From Cyclobacteriaceae bacterium (GTDB taxonomy: Bacteria; Bacteroidota; Bacteroidia; Cytophagales; Cyclobacteriaceae): DNA of 64,000 nucleotides. Each line of letters opens with the position of its first letter. The stretch's first letter is position 1. Shown in pieces: positions 15,858 through 62,660 of this stretch. Location: the NCBI GenBank assembly GCA_040222715.1, contig JAVKCN010000015.1, positions 39,163 to 103,162 of the forward strand. Direction: 5' to 3'. The notes beneath the pieces are model-generated. The model saw only the letters and a list, made by a program, of their open reading frames with translations. It ran no database searches and was not told the origin of the DNA. Position numbers and translations under genes: made by a program.

Positions 15858-16010
15858 GCAGGCAGGAAATATGGCTGCGACACCCGGCGAAACAACAAAG
15901 CAGGGCGGGAATGGTCTCACGACGCCTGTCGGAAAAAGAAAACCGGGGTGCATTGGTGCGACGACACCCGGAGGATGTACAATGACGGGCTGAAAAATAA
16001 TTCCGACAGG
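15858..16010 (+). repeat. Degenerate 42-bp tandem repeat array (~3.6 units)
   Basis: CGAC recurs at 15878, 15920, 15962 and 16004 with GG and other positions in register; 10-bp perfect inverted repeat CCTGTCGGAA (15925) / TTCCGACAGG (16001). Confidence 0.65.
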
Positions 16011-16214
16011 AGAGGATTCCTTCTCCCGCCTGATTCCTACATGTTTTTTACCTACAAGTATGCGGTTAAACAGGTATTTTGAAGCCTATAAGCTATTTTT
16101 TTAAGACAGACTGGTTTAAATTCTTGCATGCACCCATAACACGATCAGTTTGTCTTTTTTTACGGGCTGTTCGCTATGGTTTTTGCTCGCTTTCGGCAAA
16201 CAACCCTGTGTGTT

Positions 16215-16850
16215 ATGAAAAATGAGGCCACGCTGATCCGACAGTTTAAGATTGCCACGCACAATGCGCTGGCTTTCCCGGAAATATTGCAGCAACTGGA
16301 GCAGCATACCCTCAATGAGGCTAAGGTTAAAGAAGGTAAGAAGATTGGGCAACGGGCCATACAACTGCGGCAACAACACCAGCAACTGAAAGCGGATTCT
16401 AAAGAAGCGACCCGGCTCTTTCAGGAAGCTTTTGCCAAAGCCGATTTCCTCTACGGAGAACATCGCACCCTGGCCCAGGTAGCATTTAAAGATCAGGCGA
16501 CCGCATGGGATAAACTGAATCTGAATGGTAGCCGCAAACTACCCCTCATCCACTGGCTGGAGCAGGCCCAGCAATTCTATTCTAATGCCCTTCCCTATAC
16601 TGATACCCTGGCGAAATATAATATGCCTCAGGCAACGCTGAACGAAGCTCGAAAGTTGGTAGATCATATTGAAACGCTGGATATTCTTCGGCAACAGACC
16701 AAAAGCCAGTTACAGGTACTTACCCAGCAAAAGCAGGAAGCAATGACCGAGTTGGAACAATGGATGCGTCGCTTTTACCGTATTGCCCGCGTAGCGCTTG
16801 AAGAGCAGCCTCAACACCTGGAAGCCCTGGGCCTGGTCGTAAAGGCATAG
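16215..16850 (+). CDS. Hypothetical all-helical cytoplasmic protein (~211 aa), paralog of 61486-62118
   Basis: Shares motifs with 61486-62118 by eye alignment, e.g. LEQWMRRFYRIARVALEEQPQHLEALG vs LQAWMYRFDKIAQLAFDDNPQQREALG; probable start ATG 16215. Confidence 0.8.
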   Translation: MKNEATLIRQFKIATHNALAFPEILQQLEQHTLNEAKVKEGKKIGQRAIQLRQQHQQLKADSKEATRLFQEAFAKADFLYGEHRTLAQVAFKDQATAWDKLNLNGSRKLPLIHWLEQAQQFYSNALPYTDTLAKYNMPQATLNEARKLVDHIETLDILRQQTKSQLQVLTQQKQEAMTELEQWMRRFYRIARVALEEQPQHLEALGLVVKA

Positions 16851-16901
16851 TACCAGACTCACTCCCTATATTTCTTATTATCCAACTTACCATTTACCGT
16901 A

Positions 16902-18599
16902 GTGCTACGAAAAAATTGCTATCTATTGCTGGGCGCCCTCTTCGTCCTTATTGGGTGCGAAAAAGAAGAACCCGTTGTATTACCCAATCTCGAGATTGTT
17001 AACGCCACCCAGATTACCAACAACGCCGCCACCTTACAGGCCAAAATTTTAGAGAAAGGAACAGCAGAGATTATAGAATTTGGTTTTATCTGGCAAGCCA
17101 ACGGTGAACCCTTCCTGGATAACCCGGCCACCCAAAAAGTCATTCTCGATACCCCGGTAGAAGAAGGCGCTATTTCGGCAACCATCTCCGGCTTACAGGC
17201 AGGCACGGCCTACTCCTATAAAGCCTTCGTCAGTACCCAGTCGGATACGTATACCAGTATGGTAACTTCCTTCCAAACGCAGACCCCGCTGATAGAAAGC
17301 ATCAGCCCAGCCGAGGGTATACAGGATACTGAAGTAACCCTTACCGGACAATACTTCAGCTCTAACCCGGATCAGGTAAAAGTATTTGTAGAAGGAGAAG
17401 CCGCCGAAGTAACCGCCGCATCTGAGACCCAGCTAACCTTTATCATGCCTGAAAACACCCCCGGAAATGTAGTAGTTCAGGTAGAGGTGAATGGAGTACG
17501 CAGCACCGAAGCGGCAAATTTCAACTACCTCTACAGCTTCACCCTAAGACATCATGAGGTAAGAGCCGGTAAAACGGTGGTTGTCAATGTTTTTAACTCT
17601 AGTCAGGGGAATACCTATAAGATTGGAGGCATAGAGGCTAAGCAAGCATGGACCTGGCTTAACGATGGGTATCGGGAAATTGGGGTTGAAGTTCCGGCCA
17701 GCCTGCCCCCCGGTGAGACAACCATAGAGGTATTTGATACTGATGGAAACCCGCTGGCCAATGCGCACCCCGATCCTCTTACGATTATCCCCAGCGGCAC
17801 CTGGGCAAAAAAACAGGATGTTGATGTGGGGGGATACTATAAAACGGTAGGGTTTGTGGTTAACGGCAAAGGATACGTCATTGCGGGAGATAAAGTACAT
17901 CCCTACGATCAGGATACTGATTCCTGGTCGGCCCCTGCAACCATAGATTTTCTTTCTAATTCATTCTTCTATCTGAATGCATTTATTATAGAGGGAGATG
18001 CCTACATTTTAGCCGATACTGAACTTTATCGCTTTGATCCGGCTACGCTGTCGCTGGAAGTTCGCCAAAGTTTTCCCGGAGCTGGAAAACACTACTTAAT
18101 ATCTTTTTCGGATGGCAATCATCTCTTTACCGGACTAGGCTACTATTACTCTGATACAAACGAGCAGATAGCCCCGGCCGACTTCTGGAAATACCAGCCC
18201 TCATCCGACACCTGGATGCAATTGGCTGATCTTCCGTCATCCATTCATTACGCAAATCCCGCTCCGGTAGCCGCTTACCTGCATGGCAAGGGGTACATAT
18301 TTGGGCTCGATAAACAAGTAGTGTATGATACAAAGGCAGCCAGCACATTGGAAACCGATGTCATGGTAGACCGGTTTGAGATTGACCATATATTTACTTT
18401 AAACAATAGACTATACTACGGAAGAGATACGTTCTACGAGTTTGATCCGTCAAAAGAGATCGTACTGGAAGAATCTACGAGTGCTGCCGTATCGGCAAAT
18501 CCCAGATTCACTCTCATTTTTGAAGACAAAGCCTATGTTGGAGTAGCGAAAGATGGCACCCCGGCTATTGAACTATGGAAATTTACTCCAGGGTGGTAG
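16902..18599 (+). CDS. Surface lipoprotein with Fn3-like, IPT/TIG and Kelch-like beta-propeller regions
   Basis: Lipobox LIGC; ISGLQAGTAYSYKAF (Fn3-like); IESISPAEG...VTLTGQYF (IPT/TIG); GFVVNGKGYV, WMQLADLP (Kelch-like). Confidence 0.75.
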   Translation: MLRKNCYLLLGALFVLIGCEKEEPVVLPNLEIVNATQITNNAATLQAKILEKGTAEIIEFGFIWQANGEPFLDNPATQKVILDTPVEEGAISATISGLQAGTAYSYKAFVSTQSDTYTSMVTSFQTQTPLIESISPAEGIQDTEVTLTGQYFSSNPDQVKVFVEGEAAEVTAASETQLTFIMPENTPGNVVVQVEVNGVRSTEAANFNYLYSFTLRHHEVRAGKTVVVNVFNSSQGNTYKIGGIEAKQAWTWLNDGYREIGVEVPASLPPGETTIEVFDTDGNPLANAHPDPLTIIPSGTWAKKQDVDVGGYYKTVGFVVNGKGYVIAGDKVHPYDQDTDSWSAPATIDFLSNSFFYLNAFIIEGDAYILADTELYRFDPATLSLEVRQSFPGAGKHYLISFSDGNHLFTGLGYYYSDTNEQIAPADFWKYQPSSDTWMQLADLPSSIHYANPAPVAAYLHGKGYIFGLDKQVVYDTKAASTLETDVMVDRFEIDHIFTLNNRLYYGRDTFYEFDPSKEIVLEESTSAAVSANPRFTLIFEDKAYVGVAKDGTPAIELWKFTPGW

Positions 18600-18704
18600 G
18601 CATTTCATGAGTCAGAGGGGGGGGCGCTAATCCGTATTATTTTAAATGAACTCAGAATTTTCGTTTGGTTGTTGTATCTTTAAAACCGCAACACCTACGT
18701 TATT

Positions 18705-20483
18705 ATGCCAAGAATCTTCTTTCGTTCGCTTATTTTACTTGCCTCCCTCTCCTGTTATTTTATTGCCTGCACTCCCAAGTCCGAGGAAGCTTCTGGTGAC
18801 ACCTCGGGCGAAACCCCCACGGAAGAAGCCTCATTTGTGCGGGATGAATTATCGGTGCAACACGGGCAGGAGTTATTCAACATGTACTGTGCCTCCTGCC
18901 ATAACTTTGACGAAAACAGCATTGGTCCCAACCTGAGCGGGGTAACTACCGAAGTAGAAAAAGATTGGCTGGTATCCTTTATCAACAATGCTCCCAAAGT
19001 GATTGATAGTGGCGACGACCGGGCACAGGAGCTGTTTGCCACCTACAAGCAATACATGCCCGCCTTCACCATGCTGGAAGAAGAGCAGATTGAGCATATC
19101 CTGGGCTTTATCCACAAATTTTCTCAGGGACAACAGAGAAGCCAGAATAACCGCCCCGGTGGAATACTGGACCCTATTCCCGAGAAAATCCCCTCCTCTA
19201 ACCTGGCGCTGGTGCTGGAAAAAGTACTTACCCTGCCCTCCAGTGCGGAAGAAGCCCCTCTGGCCCGCATCAATAAACTTCAGGCAATAAAAGGCAAGGC
19301 TGGCGAGCGGCTCTTCATGCACGACCTGCGCGGTAAACTTTACGAGATCAAGGGCGACAGCTCAGTGGTATATCTGGACCTGGCTGCCGAGCAACCCGAC
19401 TTTATGGAGAACCCTGGCTATGCTACCGGCTTTGGCAGTTTCGATTTCCACCCCGAGTTTGAAAAGAACGGCCTGTTCTACACCTCCCACACTGAACCCG
19501 ATAGCAGCGCGGCGGCTGACTTTGCCCTGCCCGATAGCATTAAGGCCCGACTACAGTGGGTTGTATTAGAGTGGAAGGCGGATGATCCCCAGGCAGGGAC
19601 CTTCTCCGGAACGCATCGGGAATTGCTAAGGATCGAGATGTACGGTACCTCCCACGGTATGCAGGAACTCACCTTCAATCCGCTGGCCAAACCCGGCGAT
19701 GCTGACTACGGCCTGCTGTATATCAGCGTGGGTGACGGGGGCTCCGGCATCAGATACCCCTTCGTAAGTGATAATGATGCCCAGCGTATCTGGGGCAGCG
19801 TCATCCGCATTGACCCCGCGGGCAACAACAGCACCAATGGCCAGTACGGCATTCCGAAGGATAACCCCTTCATTAATAGCCCGGATGCCGTGGATGAAGT
19901 ATGGACCCGAGGGTTCCGCAACCCCCACCGCATCTCCTGGGATCAGGGCGGTTCGGGTAAAATGTTTATCACCAATATTGGGCAGCATAGCGTAGAAGAG
20001 GTAAACTTAGGCATTGCCGGAGCCGACTACGGCTGGCCCAACCGGGAAGGCACCTTCCTGTTTGACCCATTGGCCAACCCCGAAATAGTCTATCCCCTCC
20101 CTGATGACGACTCAGGATACGTTTATCCAGTAGCCCAGTATGACCATGACGAAGGCAATGCCATCTCCGGCGGATTCGCTTATGCCGGTACCAAAGTACC
20201 GCAACTGAAGGGCAAATACGTGTTCGGAGATATTCCCCGAGGTAAAATATTTTACGCAGAAGTAGATGAGATGGAATTGGGTCAGCAGGCTCAGGTCTAC
20301 AGCTTAGGCGTAGAATTCGACGGAAAGCAAACTGATCTGGAAACCCTGACCGAAAACAAACGCGTTGATCTGCGCTTCGGTATCGATAGTACAGGTGAAT
20401 TGTACATCTTTACCAAAAGCAATGCTACTCTCTACAAAGTAGTTGGCTGCAAAACGAGCGCAGATACACTCGAAGCAGGGTAG
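18705..20483 (+). CDS. Cytochrome c / PQQ-dependent sugar (glucose-sorbosone) dehydrogenase fusion lipoprotein
   Basis: Lipobox FIAC; heme motif CASCH; GSDH-like motifs LYISVGDGG, WTRGFRNPHR, DYGWP. Confidence 0.8.
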   Translation: MPRIFFRSLILLASLSCYFIACTPKSEEASGDTSGETPTEEASFVRDELSVQHGQELFNMYCASCHNFDENSIGPNLSGVTTEVEKDWLVSFINNAPKVIDSGDDRAQELFATYKQYMPAFTMLEEEQIEHILGFIHKFSQGQQRSQNNRPGGILDPIPEKIPSSNLALVLEKVLTLPSSAEEAPLARINKLQAIKGKAGERLFMHDLRGKLYEIKGDSSVVYLDLAAEQPDFMENPGYATGFGSFDFHPEFEKNGLFYTSHTEPDSSAAADFALPDSIKARLQWVVLEWKADDPQAGTFSGTHRELLRIEMYGTSHGMQELTFNPLAKPGDADYGLLYISVGDGGSGIRYPFVSDNDAQRIWGSVIRIDPAGNNSTNGQYGIPKDNPFINSPDAVDEVWTRGFRNPHRISWDQGGSGKMFITNIGQHSVEEVNLGIAGADYGWPNREGTFLFDPLANPEIVYPLPDDDSGYVYPVAQYDHDEGNAISGGFAYAGTKVPQLKGKYVFGDIPRGKIFYAEVDEMELGQQAQVYSLGVEFDGKQTDLETLTENKRVDLRFGIDSTGELYIFTKSNATLYKVVGCKTSADTLEAG

Positions 20484-20496
20484 GCACCTTGTCTAT

Positions 20497-21846
20497 TTAC
20501 AAACCCTCGTCATCGTGTAGTAAACCTACAATCCGTTCATAGTCCTGATCGGAAAGCTCAGTAGCATAATCGTAGTGCTTCATAATACGGCGCATGATTT
20601 TGTCCTGCAACTGCCCGATACGCAGAGCCTCCGAATACCGCATATCGGTAAACGTAACCATGGTGTACAATGGCACCCACCGCTCAGGGTAGCGGCGGTG
20701 GAGTTCGGCTTCTATCTTTTTCCGCTCCAGAAATTCCCGATCGGCCACCAGATCGCGCATCTCAATGAAGTTATGCAGCGCCAGTTCGGCTACCGCATCC
20801 GCATCTGGTTTTCGTAAATCCTGGAAGTGCGAGACCAACCCGGCATAATCGTTCCGGTAATTTCCCAGCAGATCCATAAAAATACGAGCGTCTTCAAATC
20901 CGGCATTCATGCCCTGCCCGTAAAATGGCACAATAGCATGGGCCGCATCTCCCATCAGCACGCTCTTGCCATACCGCGACCAGGGGAAGCATTGTATCGT
21001 CACCAGGTCGGAAGTAGGGTTCTGAAAAAACTCTTCTGTCAGTTGAGGCATCACCGCCAGGGCATCCGGGAAGCGTTCTTCAAAAAAGCGTGTTACCTTC
21101 GACGGGCTGTCCAGTTCAGCAAAGGATTCCCTTCCTTCGTAAGGCAGAAACAGCGTGCAGGTGAAACTTCGGTCGTAGTTGGGCAACGCAATCAGCATGT
21201 ATCCACCGCGAGGCCAGATGTGCAGGGCATGCGAGGCCAGGGCGTGCTCTCCCGCTTTTGCCGGAATGGTCAACTCTTTATAACCATGCTCAATATATGA
21301 CTGACTGTAATTGTAGCGGGGCGTTTTTTGCATGGCGGTCCGCAAGGTGGAGTATGCCCCATCCGCACCAATCAGCAGATCCGGCTCGGAAATAAAGGAG
21401 CTTTTGTCTTCCAGATTCAAGATACGCGCCGCTCCTCGTTCCAGGTAAATCTCTTCGCAGCGATGCTCGAAATGCAACTCGGCTCCGGCCTGTTCGGCTT
21501 CTTCTACCAGCAACTGGTTCAGCCCTCCCCGAGACACCGAATAAATTGCCTGATTGTCCGTACCATAGGGTTGAAAAGACAATTCGCCCTGTACGCTGTG
21601 CATCATCCGCCCCCGCATGGCAATGGCCTGCGCCTGAACCTTTTCCCGCAGCCCAGCCTGTTCCAGGGCTTTCCATCCCCGATAGCTCAGCGCCAGATTG
21701 ATAGACCTTCCTACCTCCACCCCACTCTTACGAGGGTCAGGGCGCTTTTCGTAGAGTTGTACCCGGTAGTTCTTTTGGGCCAATAAGGTACTGAGCAGTG
21801 CCCCGGACAGGCCCGCTCCTAAAATAGTCATGGTAGCTTGGTTCAT
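20497..21846 (-). CDS. kmo: Kynurenine 3-monooxygenase
   Basis: GAGLSG, GRSINLALSYRG, GDAAHAIVPFYGQGMNAGFED; coupled to kynU. Confidence 0.93.
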   Translation of the reverse strand: MNQATMTILGAGLSGALLSTLLAQKNYRVQLYEKRPDPRKSGVEVGRSINLALSYRGWKALEQAGLREKVQAQAIAMRGRMMHSVQGELSFQPYGTDNQAIYSVSRGGLNQLLVEEAEQAGAELHFEHRCEEIYLERGAARILNLEDKSSFISEPDLLIGADGAYSTLRTAMQKTPRYNYSQSYIEHGYKELTIPAKAGEHALASHALHIWPRGGYMLIALPNYDRSFTCTLFLPYEGRESFAELDSPSKVTRFFEERFPDALAVMPQLTEEFFQNPTSDLVTIQCFPWSRYGKSVLMGDAAHAIVPFYGQGMNAGFEDARIFMDLLGNYRNDYAGLVSHFQDLRKPDADAVAELALHNFIEMRDLVADREFLERKKIEAELHRRYPERWVPLYTMVTFTDMRYSEALRIGQLQDKIMRRIMKHYDYATELSDQDYERIVGLLHDDEGL

Positions 21847-23111
21847 AATGGAAGGGTCTGGCGAAGGATCTCGCAGAACTGATATACTTCGGTAAAGGTG
21901 TTGTACAGTGGCGTAGGAGCCACGCGGATGACGCCCGGTTCCCGCCAGTCGGCAATGATACCAGATTGGGTTAGATTTTCAAAGACCTGTTTACCCTGTC
22001 GGGAGAATACCAGTGATAACTGACAGCCTCGTTCCTCCCCATTCGTAGGAGTTATAATGGTTACATAATGGCCCTTCGGGTCTAGGTTTTGGATACATTC
22101 TTCCAGAAAACCAGTGAGTTTCAGGCTTTTGGCACGTAGTCGGTCCATACCTGCCTGGTCAATAACCTCCAACGCCGCCCGTTGCGCCGCCAGGGGCAAA
22201 ATGTTAGCGTTGCTGAGTTGCCAGCCATCCACTCCGTACATTGGCTTAAAGCCCGGCTTCATCTGAAAGCGTTCTTCTTCCCGGTGCCCCCACCATCCCG
22301 CAAGGCGTAGCATGTCGGGATCATCGGCGTAGCGTTCGTGTACAAAAGCGCCCCCGGTATTTCCCGGGCCAGCATTCAGGTATTTGTAGCTACACCATAC
22401 TGCAAAGTCTACGTCCCAGTTGTGCAACTGTAAAGGTACATTCCCGATGGCATGCGCCAGATCATATCCAACTTTTGCTCCAGCCTGATGGGCCGCCACC
22501 GCCATGGCCTCTAATTCAAAGAACTGTCCGGTATAATACTGAATACCCGGTAGCAATACCAGAGCTAATGAGTCACGATGCTGATCAATGGCTTGCAGCA
22601 CATCTTCTGTATACAATAGCTCTTCCCCCATACGGGGTTTCAACTCTACCAGTGCCCGTTCAGGATCAAGACCATGCCAGCGGATTTGGCTTTCTACAGC
22701 ATAATGGTCGGAGGGAAAAGCTCCTGCCTCAATCAGAATTTTGTACCGCTCGGGAGTTGGTTGGTAGAAGGACGCCATCAACAAGTGGAGGTTGGTGGTC
22801 AGGTTATTCATAGCCACCACCTCATGTGCTTTCGCACCTGCCAAATGGGCCAGCGGTTTCTTCAGTTGCTTATGGTACGTCCACCAGGGATCAGGTTCAG
22901 CGAAGTGTCCTTCTACCCCTTTGGTTCGCCAATTTTGCAATTCTTTCTCTACCGCCGCCGCTACCGCCTTTGGCTGAAGCCCCAGCGAGTTACCGCAAAA
23001 ATAAATTAATTCTTTACCCTGGGCATCCGTAGGAATATGAAACCGGTTGCGAAAATCGCGCAGTTCATCTTCCTGATCGTAGGTTTGGGCCTGATTGTGC
23101 AGATCATTCAT
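21843..23111 (-). CDS. kynU: Kynureninase
   Basis: YFCGNSLGLQP; PLP lysine motif DFAVWCSYKYLNAGPG. Confidence 0.95.
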   Translation of the reverse strand: MNDLHNQAQTYDQEDELRDFRNRFHIPTDAQGKELIYFCGNSLGLQPKAVAAAVEKELQNWRTKGVEGHFAEPDPWWTYHKQLKKPLAHLAGAKAHEVVAMNNLTTNLHLLMASFYQPTPERYKILIEAGAFPSDHYAVESQIRWHGLDPERALVELKPRMGEELLYTEDVLQAIDQHRDSLALVLLPGIQYYTGQFFELEAMAVAAHQAGAKVGYDLAHAIGNVPLQLHNWDVDFAVWCSYKYLNAGPGNTGGAFVHERYADDPDMLRLAGWWGHREEERFQMKPGFKPMYGVDGWQLSNANILPLAAQRAALEVIDQAGMDRLRAKSLKLTGFLEECIQNLDPKGHYVTIITPTNGEERGCQLSLVFSRQGKQVFENLTQSGIIADWREPGVIRVAPTPLYNTFTEVYQFCEILRQTLPL

Positions 23112-23152
23112 ATTTTTATAACTTCACCCGAAGCAAAAAAGATGGCACAAAA

Positions 23153-23944: not shown

Positions 23945-23957
23945 AAATGGGAAGCCA

Positions 23958-23993: not shown

Positions 23994-23999
23994 CAGTTC

Positions 24000-24740: not shown

Positions 24741-24977
24741 GACCTAACCTATTAAATGGTAAATATTTTAATAAAAGATTGTTGTACAAATAACGCAACT
24801 GAATAGCACAAAAGTACTCTAAAATTTAAAGAAAAGGGTGATTACCACTCCGTTATCTTAAGGGTTTTCTTACATACCTCACTAAAAAATATTTCCTAGA
24901 AAATATACGTAAAAAACGGCAATAAGTAAAGTCATCTTCCCAATACTCATTCCGCTAAGGTCAATCTAATCAGCCAC

Positions 24978-25792
24978 CTACAGTTTTTTTTCAATAAACC
25001 GGATAATCATTCTAAACAGATGCAACCGAGGCTCCTTTCCAACTAGTACTGTGGCTCCGATTTCGATAGTAGTAAAGACTCAAAGGGCTTATTTGCGGCA
25101 GCCAAAGTATCCTGCATCGCAACGGTATTTTAAAAGTGAACATGATCATCTCCGGTACCATGAGTTAGCAACAGATTGCCTTTTGGCTAGGATCAGGGGT
25201 AAGTATTTACCTTGGTCTTTCCGTATTGAATAGCAGGATTTGAAGATAGTGATTGGTGTAAATTGTATCATAAAACTGCCAGTTCGTGACGGGGCTTACA
25301 TAAACTCCGGCTTCAAACACCTCTTTCCCCAACAATATATTGCGTAAGGTCATGTAACCTCCGTAGCTCCATCCCAAAATGCCTATTGATGCTGATCTAC
25401 GCGGAAGAGCGAAGCAAAATAATGGGCACTGCTATTTGATCAGCTATTTCCCAACTACTCATAGGTGAAGGCACAGACCTCTTTCCCTCACGCTTCGGTG
25501 CCCTGATTATCCACATAAACCTCCAAACAGCCTTTTTCTTGCCAGGTAATGAAACCAGGGTTCGTGTGGATATCATATTGAGTTACATGCTGGTAATCAT
25601 CATTTTCGTCCTGCACCTGCGCGGTAGAGTAGCGCCCATTGCCACCCCGTTGATTCCCTGAACATCCACCTGCGTGAATAGCTCCCACTCATAGATATCC
25701 TCCAGGGTCGGAGATTAAGGTTAGACAAACTCTTCGGATTGGATAAAGATACTGGATGTCCGTAAATACAAAAAAACAAAGCTTCTTTTCAT
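24978..25792 (-). pseudogene. Dipeptidyl-peptidase IV (S9B) pseudogene with frameshifts, stops and a large internal deletion
   Basis: Manual translation across frames gives YVDNQGT, GILGWSYGGYMT (25374-25357), SPVTNWQFYDTIYT, LLLTHGTGDDHVHF* (25162-25145), NRSHS and FIEKKL* (TAG 24978). Confidence 0.85.
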
Positions 25793-26077
25793 AAAATTTG
25801 ATACTTCGGGCATTTTCTTACATGGCTATCTGTATAACTACTTAATAGCCTCACAGCCTATGTAATCCTTTTAAGAGAAACAAAACAGTTTGCTGGGAGT
25901 GCAGTTATATACGGTAACTATTGCTAAATATGATTTTTTGAAGTAATAGGCATCTATTTTCTGGGCATTTTTTTTAATACCAACGCGAGATGGCTTTCAT
26001 AAATACATTATTTCTTACAAGTAGTCCGCGTAACCTTATGTGTGTGGTATAGTTTATGTACAGATAATTCGATCCTT

Positions 26078-26398: not shown

Positions 26399-26446
26399 AT
26401 CTTTATAAACCACAAACTATTTTCCATTAAACAAACACAGACAATT

Positions 26447-50886: not shown

Positions 50887-50889
50887 GCG

Positions 50890-54473: not shown

Positions 54474-54639
54474 AAGAAATTCGTTTTTATGTCTACAATA
54501 ATCTCACTAACCCAATGCCTCGCCTCAGCCAATACAAATATCTCAAAAAAATTGGTGAGAGTACGGTTGAAGTTCTGGTTATTTTTTTTGTACCTTGACG
54601 ATTAACCTAATTTTTTATTCCACCGAAACTTTTTCATGC

Positions 54640-54882
54640 ATGGATAATTCAGAAAAAACCCTCATTGCTTTTTTAGTAGGAGCCATTGCCGGAACCATGG
54701 CAGGATTGCTAGTAGCTCCCAACAGCGGTCAGAAGACTCGAAAGAAACTGAACAAATCAGCCAACGATGTTTTATATGATCTGGAAGATGCCTGGGAAGA
54801 GAGTGCTGAGCGTATCAAAGATCTGGCAGATACTGCCGTAGAAGAGCTGGAGAAATACAGCAAAAAACTGACTAAGAAGTAG
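54640..54882 (+). CDS. YtxH domain-containing protein
   Basis: AFLVGAIAGTMAGLLVAPNSGQKTRKKL. Confidence 0.88.
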   Translation: MDNSEKTLIAFLVGAIAGTMAGLLVAPNSGQKTRKKLNKSANDVLYDLEDAWEESAERIKDLADTAVEELEKYSKKLTKK

Positions 54883-54902
54883 TAATTATATTCCAATCAT
54901 AG

Positions 54903-54942
54903 AAGCCGAATGGAGGTTACCCCCCTGTTCGGCTTTTTTTTT
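54903..54942 (+). terminator. Rho-independent terminator
   Basis: AAGCCGAA...TTCGGCTT followed by a poly-T run. Confidence 0.75.
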
Positions 54943-54948
54943 GCCCGA

Positions 54949-55989
54949 TCAGAGCCCCTGATAGTAGGTTAAGGCTTCCTGAACGTCCTTCTCTAGGATC
55001 GGCACATCATAATTGGCCAGCCCTATGCGCTCCAGCAGGGTGCAGCGAATCGTTTGCTGATCGTTTTTCTTATCCTGCTTAGTCAACTGCACAATATCTT
55101 CTACTGCTTCCGTCGGAATTTCAGGCTGACCGAAAACAGCGATAATGAAGTCGTTGATTTCTTCGGCTTCCTCCGGCGAAAGGCCGGTATGCCGGACCGA
55201 AAGGAAGGTTTCGGCAATCATGCCCACAGCAATGGCTTCTCCGTGTAATAAGGGACGGTCCGTCTCCAGAAAATAGCTTTCTACCGCATGCCCGATGGTA
55301 TGCCCGAAGTTCAGGACTTTCCGTAAGCCCCCTTCCAGAAAGTCTTTGTCAACGACCCGGGATTTCACCTGCACCGAATGCCCAATATGAGCACTCCAGT
55401 TCTGACGGGCAAAAGGCGCGCTTCGCAACGTATTCCAATATGCCGCATCGGCAATCAATGCATGCTTGATGACCTCGGCAAAGCCAGAGCGAAGCTCCCG
55501 TTCCGGTAACGTTTGCAGAAACACCGGATCGATGAAGACCTGCTTCGGCTCCTGAAACAGCCCGATGTGGTTCTTGAACCCCTGAAAGTCGATGCCGAGT
55601 TTACCGCCCACCGAAGCATCTACCTGGGCTAATAAAGTGGTCGGCAGGTTGATGAAGGGCATCCCCCGCTTATAGGTTGCCGCACAAAAACCTCCCATAT
55701 CACCGATCACCCCTCCACCGAGGTTAATCAGCAGGGATTTACGGTCGAAATGCGCTTCGGTCAGATGGTTCCAGATAATGGAACAGGTATCCAGGTTCTT
55801 TTGTAATTCACCGCTTTTTACCTCAATCACTGTATGCGCTGCGGGTAGCACATCCTGAATCAGCGGATAGCAGTGGGCAGCGGTATTTTCATCTACCACC
55901 ACAGCCAGGCGGGAAAAGCTTCCCTCTTCCAGAAATTTAGAAAGAGTGGCAGCAATGTCTTTGGTAATCGTTACGTTCTCGGCAGGCAT
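54949..55989 (-). CDS. aroB: 3-dehydroquinate synthase
   Basis: GGGVIGDMGGF, PTTLLAQVDASVGGK, LNFGHTIGHA, HGEA. Confidence 0.96.
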   Translation of the reverse strand: MPAENVTITKDIAATLSKFLEEGSFSRLAVVVDENTAAHCYPLIQDVLPAAHTVIEVKSGELQKNLDTCSIIWNHLTEAHFDRKSLLINLGGGVIGDMGGFCAATYKRGMPFINLPTTLLAQVDASVGGKLGIDFQGFKNHIGLFQEPKQVFIDPVFLQTLPERELRSGFAEVIKHALIADAAYWNTLRSAPFARQNWSAHIGHSVQVKSRVVDKDFLEGGLRKVLNFGHTIGHAVESYFLETDRPLLHGEAIAVGMIAETFLSVRHTGLSPEEAEEINDFIIAVFGQPEIPTEAVEDIVQLTKQDKKNDQQTIRCTLLERIGLANYDVPILEKDVQEALTYYQGL

Positions 55990-56055
55990 GGTTGATTGTT
56001 CTACAGACTGAATACTGAACAGAGATATGATATAAGCACGAGAGAAAGAGGCGGA

Positions 56056-57174
56056 CTAGGATTCTACCCGCAAGCCCGATTCCGTTTCGTTTTCGTTCTG
56101 GATATTATCCATCACTTCGGTTTGCTTTCGGATAGATTCTACGTGCATCAGGTTAAACAGATCCACGATAAATTTTTTGCGCAGATTCAGGTCTTTGGCC
56201 CAGTCCTTCCGCGACTCAAACACATCGTTCCAGCGATCAAGCTGAAAAGCAGCCACGTTGTTCTTTTTCTTCCACGCTCCGATCTGAGAGACCAGATCCA
56301 GGCGATGAGCCAATAGTTCTACCATTTCCCGGTCAGCATGGTCAATCTGGGTACGCAAATCTTCCAGATGGGTCACGTATTCAATATCCTCGGAAGAAGG
56401 CTTGCGAATTTGCAGTCCTCGAATAATCTCTCCCAGTGCCTGCGGGGTGACCTGCTGGCGGGCATCGCTCCAGGCATTTTCCGGGTCGCGGTGGGTTTCT
56501 ATGATCAGTCCGTCAAAGTTCAGGTCCATGGCAATCTGCGAGATCTCGGCCACGCCTTCCCGCTTACCAATAATATGGCTGGGGTCGCAGATCATCGGAA
56601 GATTGGGTAATTGCCGCTTCATCTCAATGGGCAACTGCCAGGTAGGCACATTGCGGAACCGAGTTTTCTGGTACGTAGAGAATCCTCGGTGAATGGCTCC
56701 CAGCTTGGCCACTCCAGCCTGGTGCAGGCGTTCCAATGCTCCCATCCACAGGGCTAGATCCGGGTTAATAGGGTTTTTGACCAGCACCGGCACATCGCAG
56801 CCACGTACGGCGTCGGCAATCTCCTGCACAATAAACGGGCTCACGGTGCTGCGGGCTCCTACCCAGAGCACATCAATTCCGTAGTGCAGGGCTTCTTCCA
56901 CGTGCATGGCGTTCGCCACCTCTACAGCAAATTGCACATTCAGCTCTTTCTTAATGTCTTTGATCCACTGCAAAGCTTCCTGGCCAATGCCCTCAAAGGT
57001 ATTGGGTCGGGTACGGGGTTTCCATACTCCCGCCCGCATCAGGGTCACGCCCTGCTCTTTCACGGCCTTCACTGTTTCGAACAGTTGCTCTTCGGTTTCG
57101 GCACTGCAAGGTCCGGCAATAACGAGCGGGTCCGTTTTACCTATATTCCACTGATGTAATTCCTTAAGTTCCAT
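56056..57174 (-). CDS. Bifunctional DAHP synthase / chorismate mutase
   Basis: IAGPCSAE, WKPRTRP, IHRGF, DPSH; C-terminal AroQ-like LRTQIDHAD...RLDLV. Confidence 0.9.
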   Translation of the reverse strand: MELKELHQWNIGKTDPLVIAGPCSAETEEQLFETVKAVKEQGVTLMRAGVWKPRTRPNTFEGIGQEALQWIKDIKKELNVQFAVEVANAMHVEEALHYGIDVLWVGARSTVSPFIVQEIADAVRGCDVPVLVKNPINPDLALWMGALERLHQAGVAKLGAIHRGFSTYQKTRFRNVPTWQLPIEMKRQLPNLPMICDPSHIIGKREGVAEISQIAMDLNFDGLIIETHRDPENAWSDARQQVTPQALGEIIRGLQIRKPSSEDIEYVTHLEDLRTQIDHADREMVELLAHRLDLVSQIGAWKKKNNVAAFQLDRWNDVFESRKDWAKDLNLRKKFIVDLFNLMHVESIRKQTEVMDNIQNENETESGLRVES

Positions 57175-57276
57175 AGCGTATTAAACAAATATACCTACTG
57201 TGATAGTTTATCTATTGTGAGAAATTATATAGACTGCGTTCTTTACGCGCAATGCTACCTTTGTATATAACCAATT

Positions 57277-58476
57277 ATGGAATATGTATTCACCGAAGCG
57301 CTTCCGGTTTCGTTTGATAATACCGAAATAGCTTTTTCCTACAAATCCAACCAGGATCTTCAGAAGACCTACTGGCTCTTCAAGGCCATCAACTATCCGG
57401 TGATGACCAACGTAGGCACAAAGGTTACAAAATTAGCCTTAAAATTAAAGTTGCCTATCCGTAATGTACTAAAAAACACACTATTCCAGCAATTCTGCGG
57501 GGGAGAGACCATTGCCGGTTGCTCCGGCACCATTCATATGCTGGCCTCCCACAATGTGAAAACCATCCTGGACTATTCGGTAGAGGTTGAGAAAACTGAG
57601 GAGGGCTTTGACCACACCACCGAAGAAACCCTGCGAACCATCACCGCGGCGAAGAATGCTCCCCACATGCCCTTCTGTGCGTTTAAGCTCACCGGTATTG
57701 TCAGCGCCAAGCTACTGGCCCGCGTACAGGCGGGAAAACAGCTCTCTGCGGAGCAGGAATCCGCCTATACTCGAGGGAAAGAACGCCTGAACCGACTATG
57801 CCAGGCGGCCCACGAAGCCGAGACGGGCCTGTTTATCGACGGAGAGGAATCCTGGATTCAGGAGGTGATTGACGACCTGGCCGATGAGATGATGAAGCGC
57901 TATAACCAGGATCGGGTGATTGTCTACAATACCTACCAGATGTACCGGCTCGACATGCTGGATAATCTCCGTAAAGCCTACCAGCAGGCCGTAACCCACC
58001 AGTATTATCTGGGAGCCAAACTGGTACGGGGGGCTTATATGGAAAAAGAACGGGAGCGGGCGGAGGAACTGGGTTACCCCGACCCTATCCAGCCGACCAA
58101 AAAAGATACGGACGAGCACTACAACCGGGCGCAACTGTTTTGCCTCAACCACAAGCAGCGCATTTCCCTGGTATCGGGCTCGCACAATGAGTACAGCAAC
58201 TACTACCTGACCTTGCTGATGGAGAAGCACTCCATGAAGCCCGGTGACCCCCGGGTGTATTTCGCCCAGCTCTACGGCATGAGCGATAACATCTCCTTCA
58301 ACCTCTCGGCCGCCGGATACAACGTGGCCAAATACCTGCCCTACGGCCCCCTGGAATCGGTGATGCCCTACCTGTTTCGCCGGGCCGAAGAAAACACCTC
58401 CGTACGCGGACAAAGCAGCCGGGAGCTGATCCTGGTAGAGCGGGAGCTGAAACGAAGAAAAAAGGGGGTATTGTAA
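57277..58476 (+). CDS. Proline dehydrogenase (monofunctional)
   Basis: QFCGGE, IDGEES, KLVRGAYMEKER, SHN, AQLYGM, KYLPYG, YLFRRAEEN. Confidence 0.92.
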   Translation: MEYVFTEALPVSFDNTEIAFSYKSNQDLQKTYWLFKAINYPVMTNVGTKVTKLALKLKLPIRNVLKNTLFQQFCGGETIAGCSGTIHMLASHNVKTILDYSVEVEKTEEGFDHTTEETLRTITAAKNAPHMPFCAFKLTGIVSAKLLARVQAGKQLSAEQESAYTRGKERLNRLCQAAHEAETGLFIDGEESWIQEVIDDLADEMMKRYNQDRVIVYNTYQMYRLDMLDNLRKAYQQAVTHQYYLGAKLVRGAYMEKERERAEELGYPDPIQPTKKDTDEHYNRAQLFCLNHKQRISLVSGSHNEYSNYYLTLLMEKHSMKPGDPRVYFAQLYGMSDNISFNLSAAGYNVAKYLPYGPLESVMPYLFRRAEENTSVRGQSSRELILVERELKRRKKGVL

Positions 58477-58483
58477 TTATCTA

Positions 58484-59569
58484 CTATCGCAATAAAAAGT
58501 TATAGCGTTGAGCTATCTTCCTTGCTTTGCTACTTGCCCCCTCTTGAATAAGCATCCCGATTGTAACGAATGATATGCCTGCCACAAACATTGGCTGATT
58601 AAACTCTCCCCCACCAAAGGAAGACCCCATGGGCCATCCAATCATGGCTCCGCCTATCGTGGCAACGATATTTGCTAAAATATAATTGCTACGGTACTCC
58701 TTATAATATAATATAAGCTGCTCATCATGGTACCTTTGAATTAGTGGGAGTATTTGCTTTGGCTTCGCAAAGCGATGCGTCCCTAAGTAAAACCCTGGTA
58801 CCAATCCGCCTTTGTAAATAAGACGGCTGTTATCTTCATTTAAGTTAATAAATGGAGTATCATTAATTTCTCCAAATGTCTTTCCTAAAGTAATTCCGCC
58901 TCTTAGCCCGTCCCACTGTGGTTTAATACGGACTCCATTGCTACGAAATAGATAAGTGGCGCCAGTTCCTTTACGGTATAGTTCTCTGCTAGTAGCTAAA
59001 TGGTAACCGATGTGGGCATTTACTAGTAACGAGCCCAATCGGTACCGGACTCCTACTTCAGGAGTGATTCCTCCGCCAATGGCGTCGAACTGAATAGAAT
59101 TAATTGAAGAATAATCGTAAACCCGGTTGAGCTCTTCGCTTTTCATAGAGGTAAACGTAAGAAGCAATTGGACAGCAGGTACTACTGACCAGTTTTCAGT
59201 AACTGGGATAATCCGCTCGTACATTCCCCCAATGTTTTCTGCCCTTACTAATTGATCAGAGCGTAATTCGCCAGAATAGTCGCTGTACGCTAGTCTACCT
59301 CCGGTAGATACGTGGCCCCATACAAAACCTAGTCCGTTGAGACCATCCCGCGAATGGTTCATAAATTGAATTTGCCAGTTGTAATAGGCAGGGAAAGCAC
59401 TGGTAGCTTTAATTGGCACATTGTAGATAGACATTAAATCTTGATGAAGAAGCTTTAAGTCTGACATATCGTAACTTCCGTAGCCAACTCTAGCCCGAAA
59501 TGAAGTGTACTGGCCAAGTGCAGGCAGGGCTACCAACAGCCAAAGAATAAACAAGTAGATGGATCGCAT
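58484..59569 (-). CDS. Hypothetical exported protein: outer-membrane beta-barrel-like N-domain plus hydrophobic-hairpin C-domain
   Basis: Signal peptide ending in ALG; alternating beta-strand pattern to GITLGKTF; Gly-rich hydrophobic hairpin afterwards. Confidence 0.6.
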   Translation of the reverse strand: MRSIYLFILWLLVALPALGQYTSFRARVGYGSYDMSDLKLLHQDLMSIYNVPIKATSAFPAYYNWQIQFMNHSRDGLNGLGFVWGHVSTGGRLAYSDYSGELRSDQLVRAENIGGMYERIIPVTENWSVVPAVQLLLTFTSMKSEELNRVYDYSSINSIQFDAIGGGITPEVGVRYRLGSLLVNAHIGYHLATSRELYRKGTGATYLFRSNGVRIKPQWDGLRGGITLGKTFGEINDTPFINLNEDNSRLIYKGGLVPGFYLGTHRFAKPKQILPLIQRYHDEQLILYYKEYRSNYILANIVATIGGAMIGWPMGSSFGGGEFNQPMFVAGISFVTIGMLIQEGASSKARKIAQRYNFLLR

Positions 59570-59578
59570 GGTATTTCT

Positions 59579-61459
59579 TTACAATGTGAGAGGAAGGTAG
59601 TAACCGCCACTGCTAAACAGGGTGCTATTATAGAAATAGTACTTGTAATTCGTTGAATTGTATACACTGACTTGCCGTACAAGCTGGCCCGAATTATAGT
59701 CGTAAATAAGATACTGTTCCGGATAAGCCTTACTCACCCCGCCTACGTAACCCGTTTTAGGGTCAATAGCAGGGTTGATGAGCGTGTGAGCTAACTGCTT
59801 GGTGTTTTGAGCCGCAACATCTGACCAGTTGAATACACGTATTCGCTGATCATCTACTACCATAAACTTCCCATATTCGTCGGGAACGTTCATAACGGTA
59901 TAATCGCCGATGAACGGAAACTGACCTACTTCTTGAATGCTATCAGTGGTAATTTTATAGACAGTCTGATTGCGGGCAAAGTACTCTCCATTGGGAGAAA
60001 GCACTAAAGACTTAAATACCCCATCGAAGGTATGACGACTGTGCAGATGAGCACTATCCATATCAACAATGACAATATCCTGAAGAAATTCGGTTGTATA
60101 CGCGTCCATAACTAAGCGATTGGTATTACTCACTCGCATTATAGACTTACTGCTTGACTGAACACTTCCGCCGACCAACTGCGTCTTACTGAAGGTTTTT
60201 ACCACTGAGAAATCGGAAAGGTTGATGGCTGATATATCAAAGCCGTATTGTCGATAAGCAATGCTGGCATCTTCAGATATTGTGAACGACCAAACCCCGT
60301 CAAAGTCTACCGTGCGGTTCACTTCAAAGCTGCTCTCGTCAAGGGATTGAAGAGTAACATCATAGTGTCCATTTTGGTCCAGCATGTAGATTCTCTTAGT
60401 GGCTGGCCGATACCAAATACGGGTAAATGGTTCCCCTTTCGTTCCGACTATCTGCTTCTCTGTTTCGTCAGCCGGTGCGGTATAATTGCTATCTTCATTC
60501 CGATTTATATACAAACGGTAGCTCACCGTGCTGCTAAAAGGGGCTGAATCTATGCACGTAGTATCATCTGGGTTTTCGGTTTTCTTTACAAGCTCCTCCT
60601 GTGTGCTATACCCATACGAGTCTTTTTCCAATCGATAAATAGAGTAATGGTGCAGATTTGCCGGATATTTGGTCTTCGACCAAGACAGAGCGATTGTAGT
60701 GTCGGTATTCTGTACGGAGTAGAACTCAGGAAAAGAGTCTTCGTATAGCACATCACCGCTACTCAGTTGCGGAAAGTAGTGCGAATCCTTATAATCATCG
60801 TACACGGTAGATACCTGATAGTATTTCCTGCCTCCAATGAATTCATTATCGATATACTCCGTAACTGTAGGATCATCAATCACGATTAGTTGATCAGAGC
60901 TATTATATAGTTGATAAGACACAAAATCTTCTCGGGTATAGGGCTCCCATTCTATTCTGAGGCTTCCTTCATAAGGCTCAATGGCGGTAATTTTAGGTGG
61001 CTGAGGTATCTTTATACGCACAACTATAGGTTGTTGATAGACTATTAATATCCGTTCACTTACTGCTTTTTGCTCTTCAGCCCAACTACCAGTGTTAATA
61101 TCCACAAGCACTTCTGCTTCTAACGTATAGTATCCATCAGGTATACTTTCGCTTCTAAGTCTGAACGAACCCTCTACAGCATAATCACCATAGGTATCGT
61201 GTACTTTGATATCATTTATTGAGAACTTAATATTTTGTATATCGCCTCTACGAACCTCTAGAGTATACCTTATATATTGATTTTCACTGCGCGCATACAC
61301 TGTATCCTCTCCGTCATTGATACGCATTGTCAAACCAATATCTTCTGCCGAAAGTGGATCTATTTGTACTGGATTAACTCCTTCCGGTTCATAATCACAG
61401 GCAATTAGCATGACAAAAACTACTAGTTGCCAATATGGATATGGCTGTCTTATTCGCAT
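59579..61459 (-). CDS. Hypothetical surface lipoprotein (Ig/Fn3-like domains plus beta-propeller-like C-terminus)
   Basis: Lipobox LIAC; Fn3-like LRIEWEPY...YQLY and IALSWSK...YSIYR; repeated beta blades. Confidence 0.7.
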   Translation of the reverse strand: MRIRQPYPYWQLVVFVMLIACDYEPEGVNPVQIDPLSAEDIGLTMRINDGEDTVYARSENQYIRYTLEVRRGDIQNIKFSINDIKVHDTYGDYAVEGSFRLRSESIPDGYYTLEAEVLVDINTGSWAEEQKAVSERILIVYQQPIVVRIKIPQPPKITAIEPYEGSLRIEWEPYTREDFVSYQLYNSSDQLIVIDDPTVTEYIDNEFIGGRKYYQVSTVYDDYKDSHYFPQLSSGDVLYEDSFPEFYSVQNTDTTIALSWSKTKYPANLHHYSIYRLEKDSYGYSTQEELVKKTENPDDTTCIDSAPFSSTVSYRLYINRNEDSNYTAPADETEKQIVGTKGEPFTRIWYRPATKRIYMLDQNGHYDVTLQSLDESSFEVNRTVDFDGVWSFTISEDASIAYRQYGFDISAINLSDFSVVKTFSKTQLVGGSVQSSSKSIMRVSNTNRLVMDAYTTEFLQDIVIVDMDSAHLHSRHTFDGVFKSLVLSPNGEYFARNQTVYKITTDSIQEVGQFPFIGDYTVMNVPDEYGKFMVVDDQRIRVFNWSDVAAQNTKQLAHTLINPAIDPKTGYVGGVSKAYPEQYLIYDYNSGQLVRQVSVYNSTNYKYYFYNSTLFSSGGYYLPLTL

Positions 61460-61485
61460 ACTGATGAATAGAGCATTTAGTATAA

Positions 61486-62118
61486 CTACCGCCGCACGGT
61501 CTGCCCCAGGGCTTCACGCTGCTGGGGGTTATCATCGAAGGCGAGTTGAGCTATTTTATCAAAACGGTACATCCAGGCTTGCAGTTTGTCCAGCGTTTGC
61601 TGGCGGGTATCGCTCAATTGCTGGGGCAAGCTCTTCGCTTTAATTTGCAGAGCAAGTAATTCCAGTATCCGATCTACCAAACGACTGGCATCGGTTAATT
61701 CTTTCTGAGGCACCACATACTTCTCCATCATGGCTACAGGAATATGAGCGTAAAACCGCTTGATATGCCGTAGACAATCGGTAGTACTGCGGGGAATAGG
61801 TCCGGTCAGCCGAAGGGTATCCTGGTATTGGGCGGCATCGCGCTGGTAGGCCAGTCGAGCAGTCTCCTGATGCATTCGGAAGCTCCCCATCAATTCCACT
61901 TTCGCCTGGGTGAGTACCTGGGTTGCCTGATACTGTGCTTCCTGGGCCTGTTCCCGCTGCAACGTAAGCTGCGCGATATCCTTATGCATTTTCAACCCAT
62001 CTCGAATTTTCTTTTCATCAAAAGAATACTGCGCCATCACGGTCAGCAGTTCGGGAGAGTTAAGCACGTTGGTCAGGGCGATATACGCCCGCTGAAGAAA
62101 TACATCCTGCTTTTCCAT
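61486..62118 (-). CDS. Hypothetical all-helical cytoplasmic protein (210 aa), paralog of 16215-16850
   Basis: Co-linear shared motifs: IAxxNxLxxPExL, ExKxxxGxK, KYxxPQxxLxxAxxLVDxI, WMxRFxxIAxxA...PQxxEALG. Confidence 0.8.
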   Translation of the reverse strand: MEKQDVFLQRAYIALTNVLNSPELLTVMAQYSFDEKKIRDGLKMHKDIAQLTLQREQAQEAQYQATQVLTQAKVELMGSFRMHQETARLAYQRDAAQYQDTLRLTGPIPRSTTDCLRHIKRFYAHIPVAMMEKYVVPQKELTDASRLVDRILELLALQIKAKSLPQQLSDTRQQTLDKLQAWMYRFDKIAQLAFDDNPQQREALGQTVRR

Positions 62119-62436
62119 ATCCTCATCACATTTTCTGTTACAAAATATTTCTTAAAATACACCTGCCTCACAGGCTACTTACTCAATGGTAAAATCATCT
62201 AAATCAAATCTATCATTTTGGTTTCATAGAGATATATGAATAAAACGAATGTCCAGATGTTTCATGCCATCAATAGCAGGCACGTAAAGATAAAATTGTA
62301 TTTTTTTGCAAAACATTCATAAAATAACCGAAACATGCTTATGTGCTTAATCTATGACTTTGTGTAGTCTACTATGATGTATTGGCCAAATAAGCAATAT
62401 ATAACGCTAGGGAAGAGGTATTCCTATGTAAGAAAA

Positions 62437-62660
62437 TAATCGCCGGTGCACGGGGAGGTGCTCCCCGCGCACCGGTCAGTTTACCGCCTCGCCGGGAGCA
62501 GCTCCCAATGCTCCGGAAAGTTTACCACCTCGCCGGGAGCAGCCACCAACGCTCCGGAAAGTTTACCGCTTCGCCGGGAGCAGCCACCAACGCTCCGGAA
62601 AGTTTATCGTTTCACGAGGAGCTACCCCTAGTACTCTGGAAAATTTACCGCAGGGCAGGA
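62437..62660. repeat. 41-bp tandem repeat array (~5.5 units)
   Basis: Units start at 62478, 62519, 62560, 62601 and 62642 (consensus AGTTTACCGCYTCGCCGGGAGCAGCCACCAACGCTCCGGAA); units 2 and 3 match 39/41, units 1 and 2 match 37/41; degenerate unit at 62437. Confidence 0.92.
62443..62475 (-). terminator. 15-bp GC-rich hairpin, possible terminator for the minus-strand transcript
   Basis: CCGGTGCACGGGGAG-GTG-CTCCCCGCGCACCGG; the single mismatch is a G-U pair on the minus-strand RNA, followed by CGATTATTTTCTT. Confidence 0.5.

Follow-up and report, generated by a model that had tools for sequence, protein, structure and literature searches.

A 64,000-nt stretch of the genome of a Cyclobacteriaceae bacterium (GenBank assembly GCA_040222715.1, contig JAVKCN010000015.1, positions 39,163 to 103,162; hereafter the window) raises the question of why a short tandem repeat array should stand in front of a protein-coding gene, and do so twice. 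Two genes in the window encode related proteins of about 210 aa that belong to the PQLLE family, and each is preceded, on its own strand, by an array with a period of 41 or 42 bp. The analysis presented here shows that the array and the PQLLE gene directly downstream of it form a unit of two parts that recurs throughout the family. The array is most likely the PQLLE protein's own iterated nucleic-acid partner.

Two PQLLE proteins and their upstream arrays

Copy 1 (211 aa) is encoded at 16215..16850 on the + strand and copy 2 (210 aa) at 61486..62118 on the - strand. As the original prediction had proposed, the two are homologous: they are paralogues with 31% identity over 211 aa, that is, over their full length (E=1e-28), and a six-frame search found no third copy in the window. 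Both match the NCBIfam profile NF052641 (“PQLLE family”) over positions 3-210 of 211, with scores of 178.3 bits (copy 1) and 139.2 bits (copy 2) that are above the curated cutoff of 80 bits. A 211-aa protein identical to copy 1 is present in a public collection. The earlier statement that this family has no described function is therefore correct as to function, since none is assigned, and incorrect in so far as it implied an undescribed family, since NCBI has given it a curated name. To judge from that name, PQLLE refers to the C-terminal motif PQxLExLG, which reads PQHLEALG and PQQREALG in the window proteins; residues P198, Q199, E202 and L204 are invariant in our alignment A1.

An exhaustive profile search recovered 3,043 PQLLE clusters (50% identity) at E<=1e-3, and 2,162 at E<=1e-10, from Bacteroidota, Ignavibacteriota, Chloroflexota and Cyanobacteria. 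Named sources are Roseihalotalea, Reichenbachiella, Tunicatimonas, Cyclobacteriaceae, Ignavibacteria, Roseiflexaceae and Cyanobacteria; Roseihalotalea indica carries an orthologue of 72% identity. Neither window protein scores above threshold in Pfam, searches of the family against Pfam, PADLOC and PHROGs gave zero matches above threshold, and a full-text literature search for 'PQLLE' returned no paper about the family.

Array 1 (15854..15995, + strand) comprises about 3.4 degenerate copies of a 42-bp unit and ends 220 bp upstream of the start codon of copy 1. Array 2 (62443..62657, - strand) comprises five 41-nt units of GGTAAACTTTCCGGAGCGTTGGTGGCTGCTCCCGGCGAGGC, read on the strand of the gene, the last of which forms a long terminal hairpin; it ends 325 bp upstream of the start codon of copy 2. 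Array 2 is reported by Tandem Repeats Finder (TRF; 62453-62651, period 41, 3.3-3.8 copies, 87-91% matches, score 210-216), by a repeat search (4-5 copies at a spacing of 41) and by a lag-41 autocorrelation of 0.79. Array 1 is not reported by TRF at a score of 30; the repeat search identified three copies of 65-71% identity spaced 42 bp apart, and the lag-42 autocorrelation is 0.61, as against an all-lag maximum of 0.384 +/- 0.023 in 1000 dinucleotide shuffles. Array 1 is thus weak but real. When the 64 kb were scanned in 3,193 sliding windows, the two arrays proved to be the two most periodic spots, and the upstream position and 41-42-bp period originally assigned to them are confirmed.

The same cannot be said of the gap-free alignment that had been proposed between the two arrays. 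The best cyclic ungapped match of their unit consensuses is 20/41 (sense/sense) or 21/41 (sense/antisense), which is at chance level when compared with the 18.7 +/- 1.3 of shuffled consensuses (P=0.25), and blastn-short found no cross-match. Shuffled controls therefore support the periodicity of array 1 and not the similarity between the arrays. Array 1 carries the core heptamer of the family described below (as AATGGTC and AATGACG) and shares CAAAGCAGGG(C/T)GGAAA...TTCCGAC with the arrays of two orthologous loci (L009 and L010; numbering below). No further copies of either unit were found in the window, nor elsewhere in the orthologous loci of 8.6-10.6 kb, and dispersal of the repetitive extragenic palindrome (REP) or bacterial interspersed mosaic element (BIME) type was rejected for this reason. 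The units lie head-to-tail with no spacers, which rejects a CRISPR array.

Linkage of array and gene across the family

The upstream regions were compared in 96 related loci (given L-numbers), of which 8 came from reference genomes, 8 from an exact protein look-up and 80 from metagenomes. A TRF census (score >=50) was taken of the 57 kb that lie upstream of the genes at a distance of up to 700 bp, and of the other 430 kb. The upstream regions contain 87 arrays (1.5 per kb), and 83 of these have a period near a multiple of 21, with thirty at 21, thirty-eight at 41/42 and eight at 63. In the other 430 kb there are 61 arrays with scattered periods; three have a strict period of 21 or 42, and one of the three merely lies farther upstream of a PQLLE gene. 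The upstream periodicity of homologues, which had been proposed as a check, was also evident from autocorrelation: 66 of the 79 loci with at least 350 bp of upstream sequence exceed the 99th percentile of the controls, and the best lag is always 21, 41/42 or 61-65. In the orthologues of both window copies, the sole 41/42-bp periodic stretch of each 8.6-10.6-kb locus is the one upstream of the PQLLE gene.

The linkage persists from 78% down to 21% protein identity and in several phyla. Within the range of 21-30% identity to the window proteins, a Reichenbachiella member has 21-bp units (AGCTACCA...) and an Ignavibacteria genome has 41-bp units that are 96% identical. In the same range of identity, L050 has 42-bp units that consist of two alternating 21-mers, with ten repeats. 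The upstream neighbours vary between loci and are often divergent; therefore the array belongs to, and travels with, the PQLLE gene and is not the 3' end of the upstream gene. What is conserved is a unit of two parts, a tandem array and a PQLLE gene directly downstream on the same strand. The original view of array plus helical protein as a conserved unit is thereby upheld, with 83 of 87 upstream arrays at multiples of about 21 in at least four phyla. No precedent for a link between array and protein was found in Rfam, Pfam, the PDB or the literature, and no paper was found on bacterial 21/42-bp arrays of this kind.

Anatomy of the arrays

Averaged over 59 arrays, autocorrelation reaches 0.57 at a lag of 21 and 0.65 at a lag of 42, compared with 0.30 and 0.28 at lags 20 and 22; sub-periods of 10-11 nt or 3 nt are absent. 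Because autocorrelation peaks at lags 21 and 42, the base unit is 21 nt, with most arrays alternating two variants of it. It is this usual alternation that gives the 41/42-nt period of the window arrays. After motif refinement, 208 of 299 successive site pairs are exactly 21 nt apart, and a core AAYSRYW, i.e. AA(T/C)(G/C)(A/G)(T/C)(A/T), occurs once per 21-nt unit in very different lineages. The orientation of the array relative to the PQLLE gene is fixed: the 8-mers GGAAAAAT and AAAAATGA occur on the sense strand in 9-11 arrays and on the antisense strand in none. The distance from array end to start codon has a median of 154 nt and ranges from 8 nt (L029) to more than 400 nt, and unit identity within arrays ranges from 65% to 99%. 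The arrays have an AT skew of +0.19, the coding sequences one of +0.21. In 42 of 64 arrays, the predicted folding of the sense strand is weaker than that of the antisense strand. Where one genome contains paralogues, their arrays differ; the comparison of the two window arrays is not significant, and the arrays of L009 and L011, and of L014 and L015, differ by eye.

Several familiar explanations for such repeats were rejected. No Rfam covariance model matched the window or the arrays of 16 loci at the gathering score, and at relaxed E-values only chance-level hairpin matches appeared, such as traJ_5 and FinP. A structured non-coding RNA was rejected on this ground and on that of a median folding z-score of 0, and the unit hairpins of array 2 and of L001 were rejected as being no more stable than shuffled sequence. 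Translation of the repeat fails as a general explanation, since periods of 41 and 20 nt break the frame and there is no 3-nt periodicity. Separately, L057 contains a higher-order repeat (L057:2301-2738; TRF period 109, 4 copies, 98% identical) with three GC hairpins, which adjoins the upstream side of its 42-bp array.

A hairpin and conserved box in the window's clade

In the clade of the window proteins, an additional element lies between array and gene. For copy 1 it consists of a hairpin (16005-16030, + strand) and a conserved box GATTCCTACATG (16032-16043), 183 nt before the start of the gene, with the T-run at a distance. This box corresponds to the TTTTCTTAC(A/G)TG box of the PQ2 clade. 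For copy 2 the element is terminator-like (62426..62475, - strand): the last unit of array 2 has become a 15-bp hairpin, whose stem (62475-62443) has 12 G-C pairs and a 3-nt loop and is followed by a T-run, with the box ATTATTTTCTTACAT at 62426-62440. Its local minimum free energy is -33 kcal/mol (z=-11 against shuffles). The succession of array, GC-rich hairpin and TTTTCTTAC(A/G)TG box is found for copy 1 and L010, for copy 2, L001-L008 and L011, and also in L016; L009 has a T-run variant of the element. The position of the box is nearly constant in both paralogue clades, at -173 to -193 from the start codon, with that of copy 2 at -317.

The box is on the sense strand even when the upstream gene is divergent, and this points to sense transcription through the array that ends there. 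The box itself may be the tail of a terminator, belong to a promoter or mark a processing site. A terminator or hairpin after the array as a general feature of the family was rejected, since most of the family outside the window's clade lacks it. In a set of cyanobacterial loci (L048, L059, L069-L074, L081, L085) the spacer between array and gene has a shared motif of its own, TGTGTAC..(C/T)TACAGAC..GGG.A, at about -62 from the ATG; these loci contain the HIP1 motif GCGATCGC.

Predicted fold of the PQLLE protein

From an input alignment of 116 family sequences, AlphaFold2 produced a very confident model of copy 2 (predicted local distance difference test 96.5, predicted template modelling score 0.84). 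The predicted fold is all-helical, with two long helices (residues 35-90 and 138-193), each with two short helices before it and one after it. Profile comparison matches the N-terminal half to the C-terminal half (99.5% probability, E=3.6e-23, 102 columns), which makes the PQLLE protein a tandemly duplicated module of about 105 aa. A Foldseek search of two AlphaFold2 models against the PDB and BFVD found nothing at E<=0.001, only generic coiled coils, and a profile search against PDB sequences found no match. The structure prediction and fold search that had been suggested thus yield a confident all-alpha model with no significant neighbour in the PDB. The window copies are basic (isoelectric point (pI) 9.3), and the sole consistently basic stretch of the protein is around residues 76-120.

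What the array might do

The array most likely serves as the iterated nucleic-acid partner of the PQLLE protein encoded next to it, with one pseudo-dimeric protein per 42-nt double unit. Each array-protein pair would be private, because paralogues in one genome carry unrelated arrays. A plausible if tentative form of this partnership, proposed from sequence features, involves RNA. Here, the array would be transcribed ahead of, or together with, the PQLLE gene, and in the window's clade transcription would partly stop at the hairpin and U-run. The repeat RNA might then bind the PQLLE protein and titrate, neutralise or autoregulate it.

RNA is slightly favoured over DNA for six reasons. Some arrays abut the start codon: the array of L029 ends 8 nt before the ATG and that of L092 about 35 nt before the ribosome-binding site, so near the gene that a promoter could not fit between the two. 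In the window's clade a terminator-like element lies on the sense strand, the AT skew of the arrays matches that of coding sequence, the sense strand of most arrays (42 of 64) is predicted to be the less folded one, and the distance between array and gene is flexible. Lastly, marine metatranscriptome contigs carry array-like sequence. In one such dataset (run X17), contigs match the array at a word depth of 15-43, compared with 7.7 for the neighbouring gene (L072:2740-2960 and L074:3243-3617), and the run also contains a 3.2-kb contig with a PQLLE homologue. No RNA-seq runs that hold the window were found.

A number of observations weigh against the array acting as a partner of this kind, and in particular against the RNA version. 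The protein is predicted to be a rod made up of helices only, in which no fold for RNA binding, DNA binding or nuclease activity can be recognised, and the pI of the family is bimodal, many members being acidic (about 4.8-5.1). The 21-nt base unit is below that of any antitoxin repeat known from the toxin-antitoxin systems of type III (31-62 nt, PMC3401426). Sense-strand folding z-scores have a median of 0 against shuffled sequence, so that no structure is predicted for the RNA. Terminator-like sites are not general: on the sense strand 7 of 64 loci have one, on the antisense strand 8 of 64, and a local hairpin with z below -2 is found in 10 of 58 spacers. Consensus scans for the promoter (sigma-70 type and the Bacteroidetes TAnnTTTG box) were uninformative. 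The contigs of run X17 come from related, not identical, organisms and are compatible with DNA carry-over. Lastly, tblastn against 72,556 plasmids and 50,697 phages, and a scan of IMG/VR, gave no PQLLE members.

Alternatively, the array might act as double-stranded DNA, that is, as operator or iteron-like sites two helical turns apart on one face of the helix, to which PQLLE binds in order to autoregulate its promoter or to form a nucleoprotein filament, as in Rep-iteron, ParR-parC or omega-heptad systems. This is possible, if on balance unlikely. Periods quantised at 21, 42 and 63 bp correspond to 2, 4 or 6 turns of 10.5 bp, and binding to DNA accounts for this two-turn quantisation at least as well as binding to RNA does. 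The core, AAT-S-ATT, is weakly palindromic, and its G and C forms alternate in some arrays (e.g., L063). The array lies directly upstream and at times overlaps the site that the promoter has to occupy; iteron plasmids show the same arrangement for their autoregulated rep genes, with repeats directly upstream. Arrays specific to each paralogue fit cognate recognition. However, PQLLE has no winged-helix, ribbon-helix-helix, helix-turn-helix or Rep_3 domain, and the acidity of many members does not favour DNA binding. The 10-11-bp sub-period is absent, array and ATG are separated by anything from 8 to more than 400 nt, and the context is neither plasmid nor phage. Moreover, a DNA site has no need of a compositional bias on the sense strand, or of the terminator-like element of the window's clade.

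We also considered that PQLLE proteins and their arrays, as cognate pairs of protein and repeat with modular recognition, make up a class not recognised before and with a new function, a proposal that we regard as doubtful. Each half of the duplicated protein would read one 21-nt sub-unit by means of the AAYSRYW core and its variable flanks. Proteins would line up along the array, one per 42 nt, and private arrays would insulate paralogues from one another. Such a function would differ from that of any known type of toxin-antitoxin system, of replication or partition systems and of standard transcription factors.

It is unlikely that the array is instead a cis-regulatory element read by the host, with PQLLE merely the regulated product. 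Such an element might be phased upstream DNA that boosts or gates transcription, an unstructured A-rich translation leader, or a tuning element of variable copy number. A-rich motifs (GGAAAAAT) recur at a spacing of 21 bp, hardly any folding is predicted for the sense strand in many cases (-0.2 to -7 kcal/mol per 100 nt for L028, L031 and L035, for example), and the spread of unit identity from 65% to 99% indicates that arrays turn over. The protein, furthermore, shows no sign of nucleic-acid binding or of a fold for it. Yet the arrays of paralogues in the same genome share no significant sequence, which is unexpected if one host factor reads them all, and GC-rich arrays such as those of the window lack A-tracts. 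A host-read element also poorly explains why a single protein family should keep it across phyla.

Very unlikely is a neutral by-product with no function tied to PQLLE; the repeat might then be translated, be REP-like or lie in a region prone to slippage. Tandem repeats do form readily, Y1 transposase genes of the REP-associated tyrosine transposase (RAYT) kind stand beside 9 of 98 loci, and 21, 42 and 63 are divisible by 3, with some arrays having an open frame (as an open reading frame (ORF) cluster across arrays). But position, strand, 21-nt period and core heptamer are all retained from Cyanobacteria to Bacteroidota, although the remainder of the unit diverges, and a neutral repeat would not behave in this way. 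In addition, the 41- and 20-nt periods (L015, L044 and array 2) break the frame with no 3-nt periodicity, and units are not dispersed elsewhere in the window or the loci.

Neighbouring genes

The genes that follow the two PQLLE genes lie outside the conserved unit. As originally described, each PQLLE gene is closely followed on the same strand by a lipoprotein gene, at 52 bp for copy 1 and 27 bp for copy 2, and the two lipoproteins are unrelated to each other (best E 1.5). The first (16902..18599, + strand) is a TIG/Kelch lipoprotein and the second (59579-61459, - strand) is of Fn3 type, with a weak Fn3 match only; their signal sequences contain LIGC and LIAC. A further neighbour, at 58484-59569 on the - strand, encodes a 361-aa protein with a signal peptide.

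The original prediction had made the lipoprotein the third part of a module. This could not be sustained when downstream genes were tabulated in 71 loci: 36 are on the same strand as the PQLLE gene and 35 on the opposite strand, mostly with gaps of more than 60 bp, and no conserved downstream partner was found across clades apart from Y1 transposase-like genes. In the closest orthologue of copy 2 (L001, 78% identity), a GIY-YIG gene (L001:4633-5364) replaces the lipoprotein and outer-membrane protein pair, which is kept in L007 only. In the closest orthologue of copy 1 (L009, 76% identity) the lipoprotein is absent and its slot (L009:5636-5791) is empty, so that the PQLLE gene runs straight into a glucose/sorbosone dehydrogenase gene, which in the window follows the lipoprotein. 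The position just downstream of PQLLE genes thus seems to be a variable slot. A cassette in which array and helical protein mobilise or control a variable surface lipoprotein would agree with the lipoprotein genes 27-52 bp downstream of both window copies, with the Fn3-type pair retained in L007 and with lipoprotein genes being present or absent between close relatives, but it is so improbable as to be largely refuted, given co-orientation in only 36 of 71 loci, the lack of a recurring downstream family other than the Y1 genes, and the closest orthologues, L001 and L009, which have no lipoproteins.

Y1 transposase-like genes (IS200/RAYT type, PF01797) adjoin PQLLE in 9 of 98 loci (L002:3032-3487 on the - strand, L003:4705-5310, L005, L006, L008, L028:1369-1923, L029, L049 and L053:3820-4392), which represent four or more independent lineages. 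This is far above expectation for a gene of one or a few copies per genome. Several PQLLE loci are flanked by defence-type genes (L001:1-3416; L015:1-2685; L016:767-1675; L094/L096:3880-4635; L060/L067). These include Gabija GajA (E=8e-202) with a UvrD-like helicase, AbiEii, AEP, SNF2, SIR2_2, SMODS and a nucleotidyltransferase.

Two other features of the window were noted. At 11809-11889, AT-rich short tandem repeats with periods of 4-18 lie between two convergent genes and look ordinary, and at 24741-26041 there is a stretch of 1.3 kb in which neither strand has an ORF of at least 70 aa and for which Rfam gives no match at E<=0.1.

Significance and comparison with known systems

The linkage described here provides a first concrete functional lead for a family of about 3,000 clusters (50% identity) in at least four phyla, in the form of a cis element that is unusually regular, fixed in position and directly testable. 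A specialist would not have predicted the strict 21-nt rule together with a duplicated protein that matches the two-part repeat unit, and the combination of the two is a simple search rule for more such pairs. If array RNA does neutralise or regulate the protein, PQLLE would join the three known type III families as a fourth, type III-like one of unrelated structure, and would place a type III-like system in phyla from which hardly any are known. Should the array act as DNA, the protein would represent a new all-helical DNA-recognition fold with iterated sites.

Type III toxin-antitoxin loci are recognised by tandem nucleotide repeats that precede a protein gene on its own strand, in the layout promoter, repeats, terminator and gene, and their antitoxin repeats are of 31-62 nt in 1.9-5.6 copies (PMC3401426). 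By these features, the architecture of PQLLE loci appears to match that of type III loci, and in the window's clade the layout with a terminator appears to do so too (PMC3401426). As in ToxIN, CptIN and TenpIN, short direct repeats stand directly upstream, on the same strand, of a gene for a protein of about 150-210 aa, and each pair has its own repeats. In the window's clade there is a palindromic hairpin with a U-run between array and gene, the window repeats (41/42 nt, 3.4-5 copies) are inside the published ranges (PMC3401426), and several PQLLE loci lie beside defence genes. In contrast to type III systems, the PQLLE protein is an all-helical duplicated rod and not an endoribonuclease of the ToxN/CptN/TenpN type; a toxin of those families was rejected, as there is no Pfam, PADLOC or PHROG match and no significant PDB neighbour. 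The base unit is 21 nt in up to about 12 copies, most members have no intervening terminator and no predicted RNA structure, and copies are not found in plasmid or phage collections.

RNAs whose repeated motifs are bound by oligomeric proteins, namely the trp leader with TRAP and CsrB/RsmZ with CsrA, are similar in having a short single-stranded motif in many regular repeats within RNA that is otherwise poorly structured, and a terminator-like hairpin stands beside the array in the window's clade. However, the motifs of TRAP and CsrA systems are of 3-7 nt with irregular or short spacing, whereas PQLLE arrays keep strictly to 21 nt, and their proteins are beta-rich rings or dimers, whereas PQLLE is helical and its RNA binding putative.

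Iteron and centromere arrays include the Rep-iterons of P1, F and R6K, ParR-parC and the heptads of the omega protein. These resemble PQLLE arrays in that direct repeats spaced about 21-22 bp apart lie directly upstream of the gene for a protein that could bind them, at times overlapping the promoter region, and in that the repeats are cognate to each paralogue. Unlike them, PQLLE has no Rep_3, winged-helix or ribbon-helix-helix domain and no partner NTPase, and its context is chromosomal and partly syntenic, not that of a replicon. An iteron plasmid replicon was accordingly rejected, there being no Rep_3 or winged-helix match and no members in plasmids, phages or IMG/VR. The PQLLE unit lacks a defining feature of type III loci and one of iteron/centromere arrays; it is like the former in layout and like the latter in spacing.

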